Source of the DNA: a virus
Taxonomy: Duplodnaviria > Heunggongvirae > Uroviricota > Caudoviricetes
Length of the DNA stretch: 15,934 nucleotides
Direction: 5' to 3' (one strand)
Virus record (IMG/VR): IMGVR_UViG_2529292919_000020
Part shown: piece by piece, positions 1,795 to 8,701 of the stretch
Layout of the letters: each line of letters opens with the position of its first letter
Numbering within the stretch: the stretch's first letter is position 1
Translations under genes and position numbers: made by a program
Notes under the pieces: model-generated
Databases searched by the model: none
What the model saw: only the letters and a program-made list of their open reading frames with translations
What the model was told of the DNA's origin: nothing

Positions 1795-2057
1795 TCAGGC
1801 TGGCGGCGCACCGCCGCCACCCATCCACTAACACAGAGATCTAACCATGAATACTGGATATACGCCCGAACAGGGGCGGGGCTTCGTTCGTCCTGGTGAA
1901 ACTAAAAAGCCATGTTATCGGGTATTTTCAGGCATAAAAAAAGCGGCCCCGATAAGGAACCGCCTTTCGGAACAATTAACCTGCTGCGAAAAAAATGGAT
2001 CAGTGCAGGGGAATTATATCAACCGTGTGGCGAAGCGCCACAATTGCCGGATAACAG

Positions 2058-2088
2058 GCAAAACAAAGGCGACCGCAAAAGGGTCGCC
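2058..2088 (-). terminator. Rho-independent terminator for the leftward small-gene pair
   Basis: Perfect 7-bp stem GGCGACC/GGTCGCC (2068..2074 and 2082..2088) with a 7-nt loop. On the minus strand it is followed by TTTGTTTTG. It lies about 67 bp downstream of the minus-strand ORF ending at 2155. Confidence 0.5.
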
Positions 2089-2154
2089 AGTGGGAACAAG
2101 GGAAAACAAAAGCATCACCAACAATGCCACATTTGCGGCTGGTGGGCAATGCAA

Positions 2155-2343
2155 TCAGTCTGGTTCAGTTCGTTGCCATACCTGCAATGAGCGCTTTTCC
2201 CTGTACTCTTTAAGGAATTGCTCAAGGGCAAAAGCACATGGCGCGAATCTTTCTGATTCATGCTCTATCTTTCTGCGTCGTCTTTTCCGTGTCGGTGATA
2301 ATGTTTTGGTCAATTCTTTATCGGTCATTGTGTTGTCCTGCAT
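2155..2343 (-). CDS. Hypothetical small basic protein (57-62 aa), second gene of the leftward pair
   Basis: ORF-track ORF (MQDNTMTDKELTKTLSPTRKRRRRKIEHESERF...). An AGGA lies 8 nt upstream of the second in-frame ATG, so the true start may be at 2328. It sits 42 bp downstream of the RHH-like ORF on the same strand. No recognisable family. Confidence 0.4.
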   Translation of the reverse strand: MQDNTMTDKELTKTLSPTRKRRRRKIEHESERFAPCAFALEQFLKEYREKRSLQVWQRTEPD

Positions 2344-2385
2344 AGCAATGCGCCGTAATACCTTACACCACGGCGCTGGTGATGG

Positions 2386-2565
2386 TTATTCCTGCTCTTT
2401 GGCCTTGCGACGCTGGCGGTATTCAACTTCTCGCTTTAATGCTGCTGTTACAAACTGCCCTGTACTTTCACCAGGCATTTTTACCGCCTCAACATTGTTC
2501 ATAACTTCATGCGGAACCCTTGCCGCAACTGTTTGTGATTTTGCGTTTACTGCTTTTGTTGCCAT
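2386..2565 (-). CDS. Ribbon-helix-helix-like DNA-binding protein (59 aa), candidate repressor of the divergent promoter region; not in the supplied ORF track
   Basis: Hand-translated minus-strand ORF: MATKAVNAKSQTVAARVPHEVMNNVEAVKMPGESTGQFVTAALKREVEYRQRRKAKEQE. An SD-like GGGG lies about 10 nt upstream of the ATG. The layout (N-terminal beta strand TVAARVP, helix, G-x-S/T turn, second helix) is typical of Arc/MetJ/CopG RHH proteins. It is 59 aa, so it falls below the apparent 60-aa cutoff of the track. Confidence 0.5.
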   Translation of the reverse strand: MATKAVNAKSQTVAARVPHEVMNNVEAVKMPGESTGQFVTAALKREVEYRQRRKAKEQE

Positions 2566-2613
2566 GTTGTGTACCCCTTACAAAAAACAAATGCAGTATG
2601 CAGGAAAAAAATA

Positions 2614-2667
2614 AGTGTTCAACACTTGACGTGTTTAATACCAGGGCTTAAATTGGTGTTCAACACC
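2614..2667. promoter_or_regulatory. Divergent promoter/operator region: two identical 11-bp near-palindromic operators GTGTTCAACAC (2615..2625 and 2656..2666) overlapping back-to-back sigma70-like promoters
   Basis: Rightward promoter: TTGACG (2626..2631), 17 bp, TAAATT (2649..2654). Leftward promoter on the minus strand: TTGAAC (complement of 2658..2663), 17 bp, TATTAA (complement of 2635..2640). The operators are 41 bp apart centre to centre and overlap the -35 elements. The region sits between the minus-strand RHH-like gene and the plus-strand small-ORF/replication operon. Confidence 0.45.
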
Positions 2668-2763
2668 TTACTAATGCAAGGTGCAGAAACGACGAAACCC
2701 GGCAGTGCGCTAACACTAACCGGGCTTCTAACCACCAACGATAGAAAGCGTATCGAGGTAGCT

Positions 2764-2970
2764 ATGAGAAATTATACCAGACACCCGCAAGGGCGGGACT
2801 CGTACAACCTGAATAAATACATCTGGCGTTTTATCGCCCTGAGCACGGCACAACCGCGCGTGATTACCATTGAGGCCACCAGCGAACAGGAAGCGCGTCA
2901 GCAATCTCCTGATGGCTGCGTGATGGTATTCGCTGCCCGTATTCGCCAGGGGGAAACCTATGCACAATAA
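2764..2970 (+). CDS. Small protein (68 aa), possibly of the Icd-like (P4 host cell-division inhibitor) family; family assignment is from memory only
   Basis: In-frame ATG at 2764 with GAGG 6 nt upstream. The track ORF 2569..2970 has earlier ATGs without an RBS. Sequence MRNYTRHPQGRDSYNLNKYIWRFIALSTAQPRVITIEATSEQEARQQ...VFAARIRQGETYAQ. First gene of the rightward operon downstream of the operator region. Confidence 0.5.
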   Translation: MRNYTRHPQGRDSYNLNKYIWRFIALSTAQPRVITIEATSEQEARQQSPDGCVMVFAARIRQGETYAQ

Positions 2971-3421: not shown

Positions 3422-3709
3422 ATGAAAAATAAAAATTCTGGCTTTACTGCCAGCGGCCCCGCTCGGCCTGAAATCCGCCCCGGCGATATTTTCCGGGATA
3501 ACTATGGCGGCACGGTAACGATAAAAGGCGTGGCAGAACGGCGCATCACTTACCGCCGTGATGGCTACGAATATGACTGCGTGATGCCTGTTTATCAGTT
3601 CCGGCGTGATTTCACGCTGGTGGGCCATCGTAAAGCCGTAAATCAGAAACGTGCAGCAAGTCATATCCGCAAAATTCGTGAAATGCTGGTCGCAGGGGGT
3701 AAAAAATGA
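3422..3709 (+). CDS. Hypothetical basic protein (95 aa), translationally coupled to the replication initiator
   Basis: ORF-track ORF. Its stop overlaps the start of the downstream gene in an ATGA arrangement (3706..3709). Confidence 0.55.
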   Translation: MKNKNSGFTASGPARPEIRPGDIFRDNYGGTVTIKGVAERRITYRRDGYEYDCVMPVYQFRRDFTLVGHRKAVNQKRAASHIRKIREMLVAGGKK

Positions 3710-5520
3710 AACTGGCACCGAACGTAAAACAGCAGTTACGCGGCATAAAACACAAAGAAACAGAAGTCATTATTTTTGCGGGTAGTGATGCCTGGTCACA
3801 CGCAAAACAATGGCAGGAACATGACGCGCGTATGGCCGGAGATAATGAGCCTCCTGTGTGGCTTGGGGAGCAGCAGTTATCCGAACTGGATAAGCTGCAA
3901 ATTGTGCCGGAAGGCAGAAAATCCGTGCGCATATTCAGGGCCGGATATCTTGCGCCAGTAATGATAAAGGCGATTGGTCAGAAGCTGGCGGCGGCAGGCG
4001 TACAGGATGCAAATTTTTATCCTGAGGGTATGCACGGCCAGGAGGTGCAGAACTGGCGCGAATATCTGGCCCGTGAGCGCCAGAATCTTTCTGATGGTCT
4101 GGTGATTCAGCTTCCTGTTAAGAAAAAAACAGAAGACAGCGCCGCACCACTGGCGCTTAACCAGATGGGAGCAAGCCAGCGCGGCGAAGTTCTCCTGGCA
4201 CATTATGGCGGTGAACTGGCGATTCATGCCGACTCTGACACTGTTCACCATTACAACGGCGTTGTATGGGAGCCGATTCAGGATAAAGAGTTACAGCGTG
4301 CTATGGCGCAGATTTTCATTGATGCGGAGATCAGCTATTCGCAGAACGCCATTAAATCGGCGGTCGATACCATGAAGTTAAGTTTGCCTGTAATGGGGAA
4401 TACAGCCCGTAACCTGATTGGATTCAGTAACGGGGTATTTGATACCAGAACAGGTAATTTTCGGGAGCATAACAAAAACGACTGGTTGTTAATTGCCAGT
4501 GAATTACCTTTCAGCCCACCAGCAGAGGGGGAAACGCTGGCAACACATGCGCCGAATTTCTGGAAGTGGTTACGCCGCTCGGTGGCAGAGAATGACCGCA
4601 AGACGGATCGCGTGCTGGCTGCATTATTCATGGTGCTGGCGAACCGGTACGACTGGCAGTTATTCATTGAGGTAACAGGTCCAGGGGGAAGTGGTAAAAG
4701 CGTGATGGCGGAGATTTGCACCATGCTGGCGGGTAAGGCCAACACAGTATCGGCAAGCATGAAGGCGCTGGAAGATGCAAGGGAACGCGCGTTAGTGGTT
4801 GGCTTTTCGCTGATTATCATGCCGGATATGACCCGCTACGCTGGTGATGGCGCAGGAATTAAGGCCATTACAGGCGGTGACAAGGTGGCAATCGACCCGA
4901 AGCATAAAGCCCCCTACTCAACACGCATTCAGGCGGTCGTGCTGGCGGTGAACAATAACGCCATGTCATTCAGTGACCGCAGCGGGGGGATCTCACGTCG
5001 TCGGGTGATATTCAATTTTTCGGAGGTTGTACCGGAGAACGAGCGCGACCCCATGCTGGCAGAAAAAATAGAAGGAGAGCTGGCGGTTGTGATTCGCCAT
5101 CTGCTTACTCGTTTTTCTGACCAGGACGAAGCTAAACGCCTGCTGTATGAGCAGCAGAAATCAGAAGAAGCTCTGGTGATAAAACGCGAGGGCGATTCGC
5201 TGGTGGACTTCTGTGGCTATCTCATGTCGTCGGTAATGTGTGATGGTCTGTTAGTGGGTAATGCCGAAATTATTCCGTTCAGTCCGCGCAGGTATCTTTA
5301 TCACGCCTATCTGGCATATATGAGGGCACACGGATTCGGTAAACCTGTAACACTGACGCGCTTCGGTAAAGATATGCCGGGGGCAATGGCGGAATATGGC
5401 AGGGAGTATATAAAACGGAAAACGAAGCACGGTTTGCGTTCAAATGTGACACTGACAGAGGATTCAGAAGACTGGATGCCATCATGTGCATCGGTCACAA
5501 ATGACGACAGCAAAAATTAA
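3706..5520 (+). CDS. Replication initiator (pri-rep) with P4-alpha-like C-terminal SF3 helicase / origin-binding region; N-terminal ~200 aa of unassigned family
   Basis: 604-aa ORF with strong SD (CAGGGGG). Walker A GPGGSGKS, followed by a region resembling the phage/plasmid primase P4-family C-terminal (D5-like) helicase domain. Sits immediately upstream of an iteron array. Confidence 0.85.
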   Translation: MKLAPNVKQQLRGIKHKETEVIIFAGSDAWSHAKQWQEHDARMAGDNEPPVWLGEQQLSELDKLQIVPEGRKSVRIFRAGYLAPVMIKAIGQKLAAAGVQDANFYPEGMHGQEVQNWREYLARERQNLSDGLVIQLPVKKKTEDSAAPLALNQMGASQRGEVLLAHYGGELAIHADSDTVHHYNGVVWEPIQDKELQRAMAQIFIDAEISYSQNAIKSAVDTMKLSLPVMGNTARNLIGFSNGVFDTRTGNFREHNKNDWLLIASELPFSPPAEGETLATHAPNFWKWLRRSVAENDRKTDRVLAALFMVLANRYDWQLFIEVTGPGGSGKSVMAEICTMLAGKANTVSASMKALEDARERALVVGFSLIIMPDMTRYAGDGAGIKAITGGDKVAIDPKHKAPYSTRIQAVVLAVNNNAMSFSDRSGGISRRRVIFNFSEVVPENERDPMLAEKIEGELAVVIRHLLTRFSDQDEAKRLLYEQQKSEEALVIKREGDSLVDFCGYLMSSVMCDGLLVGNAEIIPFSPRRYLYHAYLAYMRAHGFGKPVTLTRFGKDMPGAMAEYGREYIKRKTKHGLRSNVTLTEDSEDWMPSCASVTNDDSKN

Positions 5521-5530
5521 ACTTATGGAA

Positions 5531-5760
5531 TAACTGTTCACCACTGTTCACCCTGTGATAAATATCTTTTATATCAGTACATTATAGGGTGAACAGTTAT
5601 TTGTGAACTGTTCACCAAACTATTCACTGTTCACCTTTTTGATTATTTATTGAGCTTTAAGGGTGAACAGTGGTGAACAGTTGGTGAATAGTTTTTGTGA
5701 AACTGTTCACCCCTTAACATTATGAATAAAAAGGGAAAATCTCAAAAGGTGAACAGGTGA
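5531..5760. repeat. Replication origin iterons: about ten copies of CTGTTCACC / GGTGAACAG in both orientations, with an adjacent AT-rich tract
   Basis: Forward copies start at 5534, 5545, 5608, 5627, 5703. Inverted copies start at 5588, 5662, 5672, 5748, plus a degenerate GGTGAATAG at 5683. Neighbouring copies are 10-11 bp apart. AT-rich AAAAATTTTATTTTATT at about 5774..5790. The core TGTTCACC is the octamer I recall as the alpha-binding iteron of P4 ori1/crr. Confidence 0.8.
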
Positions 5761-5853
5761 AGGGTTAAAATGCAAAAATTTTATTTTATTGCTGTGAGGT
5801 AAAGCCTGTGACAACGAAGCACGCAAAAAAAACCACAATCTCACGCCCTTGAT

Positions 5854-6054
5854 TTGACAGAACACTGGCTGAGGGTGGCGATAAAAATCATCGACCGCAA
5901 CGCGGGAGAAGGGTACGCAAAAGCACATCCCGAACTGATAAGCGCATTCATGACCACGGCGGCGGCAAACTTTGCCACGCTGACAGAACGGGAGATTGCC
6001 GAAGCGGAACAGGTGACAACCATCAACGTTAAAACCGGAGAGCAGACAGCATGA
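5854..6054 (+). CDS. Hypothetical small protein (start uncertain: TTG at 5854 or GTG at 5875)
   Basis: ORF-track ORF. Its stop overlaps the SSB start (ATGA at 6051..6054), suggesting coupling. No convincing RBS and no recognisable motif. Confidence 0.35.
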   Translation: MTEHWLRVAIKIIDRNAGEGYAKAHPELISAFMTTAAANFATLTEREIAEAEQVTTINVKTGEQTA

Positions 6055-6476
6055 CAGCACAGATAGCGGCTTACGGGCGGCTGGTGGCTGACCCGCAGTT
6101 AAAGACCACCAGCAAAGGGACACAAATGGCGATGGCGAGTATGGCGGTTCCCCTGCCGTGCAGCCAGGCAGATGACGGAACGGCGACGATGTGGTTATCT
6201 GTCCTGGCGTTTGGCAGACAGGCCGACGCACTGGCAAAACACCACAAAGGCGAACTGGTGAGCGTGGCGGGTAACATGCAGGTGGGCCAGTGGACAGGCC
6301 AGAACGGGGAAACGCAGCGGGGCTGGCAGGTTATTGCAGACAGCGTAATCAGTGCGCGAACGGCGCGACCGGGCGGCAAAAAAGGTCAACAGGGCCAGGC
6401 CACTGACGCACTGAACAGGGCAAAACAACAGACAAGCCAGCACGATGACCCGTACGGGGATAACATACCGTTTTAA
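6051..6476 (+). CDS. ssb: Single-stranded DNA-binding protein (SSB)
   Basis: 141 aa. The N-terminal OB-fold region aligns by eye with E. coli SSB (WLSVLAFGRQADALAKHHKGELVSVAGNMQVGQWTGQNGETQ versus [42 protein letters not shown]). Gln/Gly-rich linker and C-terminal tip ...DDPYGDNIPF resembling the SSB ...DDDIPF tail. GGAGAG SD upstream. Confidence 0.85.
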   Translation: MTAQIAAYGRLVADPQLKTTSKGTQMAMASMAVPLPCSQADDGTATMWLSVLAFGRQADALAKHHKGELVSVAGNMQVGQWTGQNGETQRGWQVIADSVISARTARPGGKKGQQGQATDALNRAKQQTSQHDDPYGDNIPF

Positions 6477-6512
6477 TTCACAACAGCGAACAGAGTAATT
6501 ACAGGGGAAGGC

Positions 6513-7043
6513 ATGACAACGCTGACCATTAACCGGAAGCCGAAAGGCATTTACGGCACGCCGCAGAAAACGACGCAGGCGGCGCAAGAGCAGGATAAAA
6601 CCACATCGGCGCATAAAGTGATACCCGGCAATCAGAACGCACAGCAGAAGCCCACAGGGGCGACACCGTGGCAGCATATGACCAAAAGGCAGCGCAAAAA
6701 CCGCCGACGCGTTAACCGCCTCACTGAGATGTGGCCTGACTTATTCAGCCATAAAGCACCGAAGCCGCTTAAGGTGGGGATATTCGACGACCTGATGCAG
6801 GATATCGCCGTCAGGGGGCTGGCATTCGGGCCGGGGGTATTACGTGCGACGCTGGCATCCTATGCGCAGTCTCCGCGCTATTACCGCGCCCTGATAGCTG
6901 GTGGCGCACGTTACGACCTGAAAGGCCAGCCATGTGGGGAAGTGACACCACAGGAACAGCAGGAGGCAGAAACACGGCTGATGGTGCTGAATGAGAAGCA
7001 CAAGCGCCAGCGCCGGGCAGCAAAGGGGGATACATGCCAGTGA
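6513..7043 (+). CDS. ProQ/FinO-domain RNA-binding protein
   Basis: 176 aa with strong SD (GGGGAAGG). ...WPDLFSHKAPKPLKVGIFDDLMQDIA...LRATLASYAQSPRYYRALIAGGARYDLKGQPCGEVTPQEQQEA matches the ProQ N-terminal / FinO fold signature (PLKIGIF-DL ... LR-AL--Y--S-RY ... R-DL-G-PCGE). Confidence 0.8.
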   Translation: MTTLTINRKPKGIYGTPQKTTQAAQEQDKTTSAHKVIPGNQNAQQKPTGATPWQHMTKRQRKNRRRVNRLTEMWPDLFSHKAPKPLKVGIFDDLMQDIAVRGLAFGPGVLRATLASYAQSPRYYRALIAGGARYDLKGQPCGEVTPQEQQEAETRLMVLNEKHKRQRRAAKGDTCQ

Positions 7044-7282
7044 CATTTGAAGAAGTTCAGCAACATAAAAAGCTTCATTGTTTTGATGATCTGGAAACCA
7101 CGACAGCAAAAAAATATCGTCGGTTGCTTTCTTCCGATGCGTTATTTTTTGTGGATCATCATGATTTTCTGCGTAGCTCACTGACCGGGGAAATTTTCGC
7201 AACCAACCGTGAGCAGGTGGAAGCGATGATCGAATATTTGTGGAAAATAAGACGCAGAATGCGGGAGCCAGTGAAACAATAA
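7034..7282 (+). CDS. Hypothetical protein (82 aa)
   Basis: ATG at 7034 with GGGGGA SD, overlapping the stop of the ProQ/FinO-like gene. Followed directly by an intrinsic terminator. Confidence 0.5.
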   Translation: MPVTFEEVQQHKKLHCFDDLETTTAKKYRRLLSSDALFFVDHHDFLRSSLTGEIFATNREQVEAMIEYLWKIRRRMREPVKQ

Positions 7283-7290
7283 AGCGATAA

Positions 7291-7319
7291 AGGCCCGGAT
7301 TTTTTCCGGGCCTTTTTTC
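7291..7319 (+). terminator. Rho-independent terminator closing the replication/accessory operon
   Basis: Stem GGCCCGGA (7292..7299) pairing with TCCGGGCC (7305..7312), followed by TTTTTT (7313..7318). Confidence 0.7.
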
Positions 7320-7336
7320 AGGTTTTGTAAATTATT

Positions 7337-7362
7337 TGTTCGTGGTTGTTCCAGGTTGTTCG
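7337..7362. promoter_or_regulatory. Three TTGTTC units phased at exactly 10 bp (starts 7337, 7347, 7357) upstream of the capsid operon: candidate activator-binding site for late/packaging gene expression
   Basis: Direct reading: tTTGTTCgtggTTGTTCcaggTTGTTCgg. An 18-nt exact match to the reverse complement of 1304..1321. Lies just after the terminator and about 195 bp upstream of the major capsid gene start. Confidence 0.5.
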
Positions 7363-7555
7363 GTGATTCTGGTTGATGTTTACATACTGATTTTTATGTA
7401 TATGTTGGCGTGTGGCACTCAGACGTGAGCCGCCACAATGCCGCCTGACCCCCTGCGCGATGCCGGGTTGATCTGCGAGATGCCGAGAGTGTCGGGCGGC
7501 GCTCCCCCCGTGTTGGTTTCACGTCCTGAATCTTAACCAATGCGAGAAAACCTTC

Positions 7556-8701
7556 ATGAAGAAATTAATCGAACTCCGCCAGCAAAAAACCGCCCTGAAA
7601 AACCAGATGCGATCCCTGCTGGAAAAAGCCGACAGTGAAAACCGCAGTCTAACCGATGACGAGGGCAAACAGTTTGATGAACTGCGTGCAAAAGCCGATT
7701 CCCTCGACACAGAAATTTCCCGACTCGAGTCTGTGGCTGATGAAGAACGTAACCAGCCTGGTGTTCCCGTCGAAGATAAAATCACCAAAGACGAGCTACG
7801 CTCTTACATTCTGACCGGGGAAACCCGCAACCTGTCCGGCAGTGTTCCGGCTGATGGTGGTTATACGGTTATCCCGGAACTGAACAGAGAAATTATGCGT
7901 CAGCTTTCTGATGAGTCGGTGATGCGTAAAATCTGTACTGTTAAAACCATTCACAGTAATGAATTTAAGCAACTGGTTTCTGCCGGGGGTGCGGTCGTGG
8001 GACACGGCGAAGAAGGTGCGGCACGTAACCAGACGGCAACCCCAAAACTGAATGAAGTCAGTATCCGCCTGTATCCGATCTACGCTTACCCGAAAACCAC
8101 TCAGGAAATTATCGATTTTTCCGAAGTCGATATTATGGGCTGGTTATCTTCTGAAATTGGCGACACTTTCGTTGATACCGAAGAAACGGATCTGGTTTCC
8201 GGTGATGGCGAGAAAAAAGCCAAAGGTTTCCTGACTTTCCCGCGCACTACGGATAATGACAAAACCCGTCCTTTCGGTACGCTCCAGACGAAAAAAGTGA
8301 CTGGCAGTCTCAGCGCCGATATGCTGATTGACCTGAAATTTACGCTGCGCAATAAGTACCGCAAAAAAGCTGTATGGGTGATGAACTCAAATACAGCCGC
8401 CTCCGCACAAAAACTGAAAAATGCCACTGGTGATTACATCTGGCGCGATCGTTTACAGGCTGGTGATCCTGATTCTCTGCTGGGGCTTCCGGTTGAATAT
8501 CTGGAATTTATGCCGGACGGTGTGATTGCAGTCGGTGACTTTAAGCGCGGTTATTTCATCGTTGACCATAAAACCGGTACGCGTACCCGTCCGGATTTCA
8601 GCGAGCCTGGATTCATTAACATCTATACCCAGAAATATCTGGGCGGTGGTGTGGTGGATTCGAACGCCATCAAGATTCTGGAAATTCAGGCTGGCAAGTA
8701 A
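7556..8701 (+). CDS. Major capsid protein, HK97 family (with N-terminal coiled-coil delta/scaffold-like domain)
   Basis: 381 aa. The N-terminal ~100 aa are highly charged and coiled-coil-like (ELRQQKTALKNQMRSLLEKAD...LRAKADSLDTEISRLES), as in HK97-type capsid delta domains. Gene context with protease and portal. Confidence 0.85.
   Translation: MKKLIELRQQKTALKNQMRSLLEKADSENRSLTDDEGKQFDELRAKADSLDTEISRLESVADEERNQPGVPVEDKITKDELRSYILTGETRNLSGSVPADGGYTVIPELNREIMRQLSDESVMRKICTVKTIHSNEFKQLVSAGGAVVGHGEEGAARNQTATPKLNEVSIRLYPIYAYPKTTQEIIDFSEVDIMGWLSSEIGDTFVDTEETDLVSGDGEKKAKGFLTFPRTTDNDKTRPFGTLQTKKVTGSLSADMLIDLKFTLRNKYRKKAVWVMNSNTAASAQKLKNATGDYIWRDRLQAGDPDSLLGLPVEYLEFMPDGVIAVGDFKRGYFIVDHKTGTRTRPDFSEPGFINIYTQKYLGGGVVDSNAIKILEIQAGK

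Follow-up and report, generated by a model that had tools for sequence, protein, structure and literature searches.

What does a FinO-domain gene do inside a phage satellite? FinO-domain proteins form the third major class of bacterial RNA chaperones. An open reading frame at positions 6513..7043 (+ strand) of IMG/VR record IMGVR_UViG_2529292919_000020, whose whole 15,934-nucleotide stretch we call the window, had been ascribed to the ProQ/FinO family in an earlier note, which named a Pfam search for that domain as one check and raised control of island or helper transcripts, or interference with host ProQ, as possible functions. According to the open reading frame list and its translation, the CDS starts with ATG, encodes 176 aa and stops with TGA at 7041-7043. 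Searched against Pfam-A, this protein gave PF04352 (ProQ/FINO) as its single match, at E=1.2e-23 and a clear 83.5 bits against a gathering score of 27 bits, with residues 64-168 aligned to profile positions 5-108 of 109 (104/109 positions). All significant phmmer matches among PDB sequences were FinO-domain proteins, the best being the ProQ NTD (5nb9, 1e-11) and FinO (1dvo, 9e-11), alongside NMB1681, Lpp1663 and RocC. RefSeq labels the gene 'ProQ/FINO family protein' on near-identical E. coli DNA.

An AlphaFold model, for which 29 homologues served as input, was then compared with the PDB by Foldseek, and the FinO/ProQ domain was mapped to 6684..7028 (+ strand). Model confidence is high across residues 60-170 (pLDDT 88-96) and drops below 50 for residues 1-48. 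The predicted helices span residues 58-73, 90-101, 107-118 and 121-129, the latter three forming the core, and a basic C-terminal helix spans 146-172; together with a predicted β-hairpin (132-134/140-143), the model thus displays the helical bowl and two-stranded β-hairpin of the FinO fold. Foldseek ranks 1-27 were all FinO-domain structures, and nothing credible was found below rank 27. RNA binding by ProQ depends on K35, G37, D41, R58, Y70, R80, D82 and G85 (PMC7192607). When 11 RNA-binding residues of ProQ were checked in the phmmer alignment to 5nb9, nine were kept in the satellite protein (K35>K87, G37>G89, D41>D93, R58>R111, R69>R122, Y70>Y123, R80>R133, D82>D135 and G85>G138), whilst K54 and L71 are replaced by P107 and Y124. 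The kept residues are at least 90% conserved within the clade described below, R111 excepted. Taken together, the Pfam match, the predicted fold and the conserved RNA-binding residues uphold the family assignment and leave us in little doubt that the product of 6513-7043 is a FinO-domain RNA binder.

Ahead of the domain lies an N-terminal extension (residues 1-57; 6513..6683, + strand) that is basic, Gln/Thr-rich and predicted to be disordered. Direct counting gave 14 K/R, 2 D/E, 9 Q and 11 T in residues 1-66 and 6 K/R in the last 17 residues, in agreement with the long basic, Gln-rich N-terminus and basic C-terminus described previously. Two motifs are conserved in the extension, M-x-x-LTINRKPKGIY and TPW-x-HMTKRQRKNRRR; within the clade, T5, I6 and R8 are conserved at 90% or more, and K62, N63 and R66 are nearly or fully invariant. 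Residues 1-14 (6513-6554), which hold the first of these motifs, are almost invariant across the clade despite their predicted disorder, and may act as a short linear motif that binds RNA or a partner. MAFFT aligned this motif with 'VLTLKRKTEG' of FinO and loosely with 'PVIVVKKRR' of FopA, a resemblance that does not imply functional homology.

Among 53 distinct alleles, dN/dS was 0.30 for the whole gene; by region it rose from 0.24 (core) through 0.34 (N-terminal extension) to 0.52 (C-tail). Indels among homologues of the gene are in frame, and the open reading frame is under purifying selection. This bears on the notion that the gene is a non-functional passenger or encodes a protein that does not bind RNA, being what is left of a plasmid finO-like gene that is decaying and does nothing for the satellite. 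Such a remnant would fit the many truncated copies among the database homologues, the dispensability of the gene for this type of satellite and its absence from the prototype cf-PICI. However, dN/dS values of 0.24-0.34, the near-invariance of most of the RNA-binding residues checked, the conservation of the full-length clade across Escherichia, Salmonella and Citrobacter with the same gene order in the latter two, and the preserved overlaps with the downstream start all argue against decay, and we consider this explanation very improbable.

To what kind of element does the gene belong? A tyrosine integrase gene occupies 1-1230 and is separated by a small HTH gene (alpA-type) from an icd-like gene (2764..2970, + strand; NCBIfam NF033153, E=1e-19, and RefSeq annotation), the first gene of a rightward operon for which a promoter scan proposed a sigma-70-like promoter at 2626-2654. 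Then come a DUF4222 gene (3422-3709, + strand) directly upstream of the primase, a D5-type primase gene (3706-5520) and, between the primase and the next open reading frame, an AT-rich block (5518-5780) in which GTGAACAG/CTGTTCAC iterons recur in direct and inverted orientation and which is presumably the satellite replication origin; Rfam matches of this block to plant and animal miRNAs are spurious. Further on lie ssb (6051..6476, + strand; PF00436), the FinO gene, orf82 (7034..7282, + strand) and the capsid gene (7556-8701; PF05065), so that the position between SSB and the capsid operon given in the earlier note is borne out. Genes for a protease, portal, connector, HNH, TerS and TerL follow the capsid, with phoQ thereafter on the opposite strand, and the window holds no tail or lysis genes.

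By gene content and site, the carrier, which sits between roxA and phoQ, is a cf-PICI of the O-island 51/EcCIEDL933 type: int, an alpA-type HTH gene, a primase and its own packaging/capsid set are present within ~14-15 kb. The roxA/phoQ site and the gene order are the same in Sakai Sp7/OI-51. O-island 51 corresponds to CP-933C of EDL933 and to Sp7 (PMC3378721), and has been studied as EcCIEDL933 in a cf-PICI preprint (10.1101/2022.09.08.507074). At least 80% of the window was found in one place in 21 complete E. coli genomes, with 98-99.4% identity among the eight matches listed.

Within this element the rightward early/replication operon runs icd ... DUF4222/RgdR - primase - ssb - [FinO gene and/or perC] - orf82 - terminator. 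A 36-nt gap separates ssb from the FinO gene, the start of orf82 overlaps the FinO-gene stop by 10 nt, and a scan of 5520-7289 found no promoter-like or + strand terminator-like site. With so short a gap, no promoter or terminator in between and a downstream start that overlaps the stop, the FinO gene is likely expressed from the early operon; ssb and the FinO gene probably share one transcript, and the protein would be made when this operon switches on. Minus-strand terminator-like matches inside the open reading frame (6705-6688 and others) were treated as chance, as 31 were found against 18 +/- 4.5 expected and nothing else supported them.

The neighbours were also considered in their own right. 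The FinO-domain protein could have been taken for RgdR, a regulator described as common to all E. coli PICIs, but that name belongs to the DUF4222 gene that precedes the primase (ECs1581, 99 aa). In the window, the DUF4222 gene at 3422-3709 occupies the site that RgdR (ECs1581), a LEE/motility regulator, holds in O-island 51 (PMC3378721), and has the motif R-P-G-D rather than RGD. The product of orf82 belongs to phrog_1957 (E=2e-35), a family of small proteins conserved directly before the capsid operon in cf-PICIs, and has no Pfam family; we rejected the idea that it is a divergent PerC, as no Pfam PerC signal was seen at E<=10 and it is instead a homologue of Sakai ECs_1589 (40% identity). 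PADLOC returned no defence-system match for the FinO-domain protein or its neighbours. A 255-codon open reading frame at 1847-2614 (+ strand), a truncated pseudogene in RefSeq, overlaps a YlcI/YnfO-family gene at 2386-2565 (- strand).

We then asked how widely the gene is shared. An exhaustive HMMER search returned 2,148 50%-identity clusters at E<=1e-3 and only nine at E<=1e-30, indicating a compact clade, whose named members listed come from Escherichia, Shigella, Salmonella and Citrobacter. DNA matches to the FinO gene were found in 1,095 of 5,426 complete E. coli genomes (~20%), all chromosomal and in up to nine places per genome; at least 80% of the gene was covered in 385 of the 5,426 (~7%). 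We recovered 81 loci via the protein (80 from IMG/VR and one from E. ruysiae), and in all 81 the gene lies downstream of the primase in a PICI backbone, whether or not ssb is present. Copies whose DNA has diverged further (73-78% nucleotide identity) encode proteins of the same clade; they are found in PAI-type islands, with Rpn, AlpA and inovirus-Gp2-like genes as neighbours. From these loci, the proteins form a distinct enterobacterial clade confined to PICI satellites and P4-type islands. Solitary clade genes with the same N-terminal motifs occur at 7881-8357 of L002, 7996-8520 of L003 and 7001-7500 of L007; such copies lie in PAI-type islands, except for one on an IncI-gamma/K1 plasmid, with Rpn, AlpA, inovirus-Gp2-like and Hha-like neighbours, and one adjoins an afa/dra adhesin operon.

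Is the gene part of the satellite core? Islands were recovered independently via a backbone RNA motif, which yielded 77 distinct islands with at least 6 kb downstream. The FinO gene was present in 15 of these 77 related islands (19%), which makes it accessory, optional cargo rather than a core satellite function. In the prototype, Sakai Sp7, the same slot holds pchE (PerC family) and an orf82 homologue, with no FinO gene. The slot between ssb and the packaging genes (6477-7555 in the window, 7773-8394 in L091; also seen in L004, L005 and L208-L210) is variable: the FinO gene and a PerC-family gene occur there singly, together or not at all.

The company that the gene keeps is less variable. 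Directly 3' of it are orf82 and the capsid operon in 19/81 loci and a PerC-family gene in 58/81, the gap to perC being 42 nt or less in 54 of these 58; in the remaining four loci perC lies just upstream, so that perC flanks the gene in 62/81 loci. The two genes usually abut or overlap, and from their arrangement in these 62 loci they look like a two-gene cassette. In Salmonella and Citrobacter the order is ssb - FinO gene - perC, with overlapping stop and start codons, while in cf-PICIs either the FinO gene or perC precedes orf82, the window carrying the FinO gene without perC. Among non-capsid islands, perC was present in 11/11 with the FinO gene vs 10/50 without (Fisher p=8e-7, a value that overstates independence because the sampled islands are related). 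We also considered a FinO gene plus small regulator cassette common to F plasmids and PICIs, and rejected it: the IncF ANR gene beside finO has no detectable similarity to the PICI PerC.

This tight linkage hints at a host-directed role, in which the protein would act in trans as a cargo regulator of the host or helper, together with the PerC cassette, on ProQ-dependent sRNAs, mRNA 3' ends or lambdoid antisense RNAs, the outcome being a host reprogrammed in virulence or motility or a more favourable spread of the satellite. The optional presence of the gene (19% of islands), its perC flank at usually near-zero or overlapping spacing (62/81 loci), the 11/11 vs 10/50 distribution of perC and the persistence of clade members in PAI-type islands that lack the antisense RNA candidate as-icd (see below) are all consistent with such a role. 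In addition, PICI PerC-like and RgdR proteins alter LEE expression and motility (PMC3378721, PMC11773190), and ProQ-type domains can be promiscuous (PMC9977716). On the other hand, those mobile-element FinO-domain proteins with an N-terminal extension that have been characterised show high specificity for RNA of their own element, in cf-PICIs, the window included, the FinO gene occurs without perC, the linkage statistics come from related, non-independent islands, and no candidate host target emerged. We therefore regard a host-directed regulator as possible but doubtful.

The protein was also compared with characterised FinO-domain proteins. As far as sequence comparison goes, the satellite protein is neither FinO, ProQ nor FopA, though its architecture appears to be that of the mobile-element type (FinO, FopA), with a disordered basic N-terminus, a FinO domain, a basic C-terminal helix and no Tudor domain. 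FinO (1dvo) is likened to it by a modelled domain rmsd of 2.0 Å over 102 columns, by ~35% identity in the domain only, by the disordered basic N-terminus, the basic C-terminal helix and carriage on a mobile element, and by a similar N-terminal start (LTINRKPKG in the satellite protein vs LTLKRKTEG in FinO). However, the satellite protein scores 65.5 bits against a cut-off of 136 for NCBIfam NF010317, its N-terminal helix measures ~21 residues (W53-W74) vs ~48 (W36-W84) in FinO, and its gene lies in a chromosomal phage satellite whereas finO lies at the end of the IncF tra region. FinP, searched for in the window, gave no Rfam match at E<=1.

ProQ (5nb9) is the best PDB sequence match, with ~35% identity over the NTD and nine RNA-binding residues in common, but the satellite protein has no linker or Tudor domain and ends at residue 176 after one helix, its domain is preceded by a 57-residue extension, it is carried horizontally whereas ProQ belongs to the core genome, and it scores 58.4 bits vs the NCBIfam NF003434 cut-off of 127. 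NMB1681 of N. meningitidis and RocC/Lpp1663 of Legionella are the top structural matches to the model (rmsd 2.2-2.6 Å), RocC and NMB1681 reaching a Foldseek TM of up to 0.84 when normalised to the target; they differ in being chromosomal genes with other extensions and 24-30% identity. FopA (YafB; sequence taken from NC_017718) of the IncI plasmid pCol1B9 is likewise a mobile-element FinO-domain protein with a basic N-terminal extension, but identity is 35% over 83 aa, the N-terminus gave no BLASTP alignment, with only a short basic motif alike, and FopA resides on an IncI plasmid with Inc/repZ whereas the satellite is a different type of replicon without Inc/repZ and all E. coli DNA matches to its gene are chromosomal. 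PcnR of IncI2, compared by description only, is again a mobile-element FinO-domain protein with a basic N-terminal extension.

FopA represses its own replicon via the Inc/repZ antisense pair and PcnR via a leader stem-loop, and repression of the element that carries it is common to every mobile-element member characterised (FinO, FopA, PcnR), in each case through a leader or antisense RNA at a gene for replication or transfer (PMC9977716). Earlier mentions of ProQ/FinO-like genes in satellites concern one Enterobacter cloacae PICI (PMC13612085) and capsid-forming Vibrio satellite-plasmids that are episomal (PMC13230959); both stay at the annotation level and come without clade definition, distribution, linkage or RNA partner. 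In the literature searched, nothing beyond these mentions connects a FinO domain with the biology of satellites, and the key PICI papers are silent on it. What was already known is the RefSeq family assignment and the occurrence of FinO-like genes in Enterobacter PICI and Vibrio satellite-plasmids; the PICI/PAI-restricted clade, its accessory status, its tight perC/orf82 coupling and a candidate antisense RNA are new.

The overall explanation that we favour, with moderate confidence, is that of a functional FinO-domain RNA binder of a satellite/island clade, carried as optional cargo of the early operon and likely to have an RNA of its own element as ligand. Most probably the ligand would belong to the structured RNAs, antisense or terminator, that the mobile element encodes. 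FinO domains recognise a hairpin plus a single-stranded 3' tail (PMC9977716), and this type of ligand prompted a search for RNA partners in the island.

The search revealed a candidate antisense RNA of ~80 nt, as-icd, on the minus strand at 2680..2766 (about 2765 to 2685), which spans both the SD of the icd-like gene and its AUG. The sequence at 2771..2779 (- strand) reads as an extended -10 promoter, TGGTATAAT, and TGGTATAAT or TGGTATGAT occurs in 28/30 distinct variants. The RNA would fold into two stem-loops (SL1, SL2) with a U-rich tail, at -36.5 kcal/mol and z=-5.3 for the minus strand vs z=-2.0 for the plus strand opposite. Of its 26 pairs, eight show compensatory changes (SL2), and invariant G.U pairs in SL1 are possible on the minus strand only. 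SL1, which overlaps the icd translation start, is invariant across 82 distinct variants, while SL2 varies among them and the tail is a true U-run in many. SL1 and SL2 abut with no clear single-stranded spacer, and the 3' tail in the window, UUUCGUCGUUUCU, is not a clean U-run. A covariance model of as-icd found 75 related loci, including Sakai Sp7, all on the same strand.

Rfam returned only a sub-threshold SymR match for as-icd (32.8 bits, E=0.006), and no C4, FinP or other family above threshold in the window. We take as-icd to be real; with no such family and no paper found, it appears to be undescribed. Both SymR and FinP are like it in size and architecture, and as-icd resembles a regulator of the cell-division inhibitor Icd in the manner of a type I antitoxin or of FinP. 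Its promoter may also feed a leftward transcript on the YlcI/YnfO side, where a strong minus-strand terminator (2068-2088; GGCGACC...GGTCGCC TTTGTTTT) lies ~300 nt beyond the YlcI/YnfO-family gene.

We hypothesise that as-icd is the best cis-encoded ligand candidate for the FinO-domain protein. By analogy with its relatives, the protein would clamp the hairpin base and single-stranded 3' tail with K87, G89, D93, R111, R122, Y123, R133 and D135 on its concave face, and such clamping may shield the RNA from RNases and speed sense-antisense pairing. The result would be negative feedback on icd and the replication genes, of the FinOP or FopA-Inc kind, both in cis and on co-resident satellites; the logic proposed for as-icd and the icd-primase operon would be that of FopA and PcnR. 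Action on a structured RNA encoded by the island, with as-icd as best candidate and damping of icd and the replication operon as outcome, is accordingly put forward only tentatively.

A stricter version would make the PICI-clade chaperone the dedicated partner of as-icd, a FinOP-like module setting the threshold for Icd and the replication operon. We looked for co-inheritance of as-icd and the FinO gene and did not find it: as-icd occurs without the gene in 62/77 distinct islands, including the prototype Sakai Sp7/OI-51, so that co-occurrence reaches 19% in one direction, and the covariance model had no match within 8 kb of the PAI-type clade loci. As as-icd is present in islands that lack the FinO gene, it must work without that protein, and co-inheritance lends no support to a dedicated pair, which we consider a rather weak possibility. 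Host ProQ may serve as-icd generally. The invariance of SL1 in every PICI variant sampled means that one chaperone could act on all co-resident satellites, and a dedicated pairing, if true, would bear on satellite dormancy and on cross-satellite immunity or competition.

More broadly, the clade is satellite-borne and matched in ~7-20% of complete E. coli genomes, and it could bring to light how satellite dormancy or induction is controlled post-transcriptionally, or cross-talk among co-resident satellites. Another possibility is interference with the ProQ networks of the host in pathogenic E. coli; there, the PerC and RgdR genes nearby already affect virulence expression. For the FinO-domain protein, as-icd provides a concrete RNA candidate.

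A second structured RNA of the island lies at the end of the early operon, where an intrinsic terminator was found at 7289..7319 (+ strand; AAAGGCCCGGA-TTTTT-TCCGGGCCTTT, then a T-run) with an A-rich 5' flank, a GC stem and a U6 tail (-25.3 kcal/mol, z=-4.6). The terminator after orf82 is conserved in cf-PICI loci, and a similar hairpin follows perC in many classical PICIs. Modelled on ProQ at the cspE 3' UTR, the protein might bind this terminator and guard its own early transcript from 3' exonucleases, providing positive feedback during induction. The terminator does have the features that FinO domains recognise, and many of the gene-carrying loci sampled have an equivalent hairpin 3' of orf82 or perC; yet such terminators are generic, the sample comprises gene-carrying loci only, and no specific co-variation with the gene was found, making stabilisation of its own mRNA unlikely. 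In 17 of the 81 FinO-gene loci, all classical PICIs, two tandem terminator-like hairpins lie 3' of perC, GGAGGCCGGGATTTTTCCCGGCTTTTTT then AAAAAGCCCGCAGCCAGAAGTGTTGCGGGCTTTGTTTTT, the second of which might end a convergent transcript or be a small RNA in its own right.
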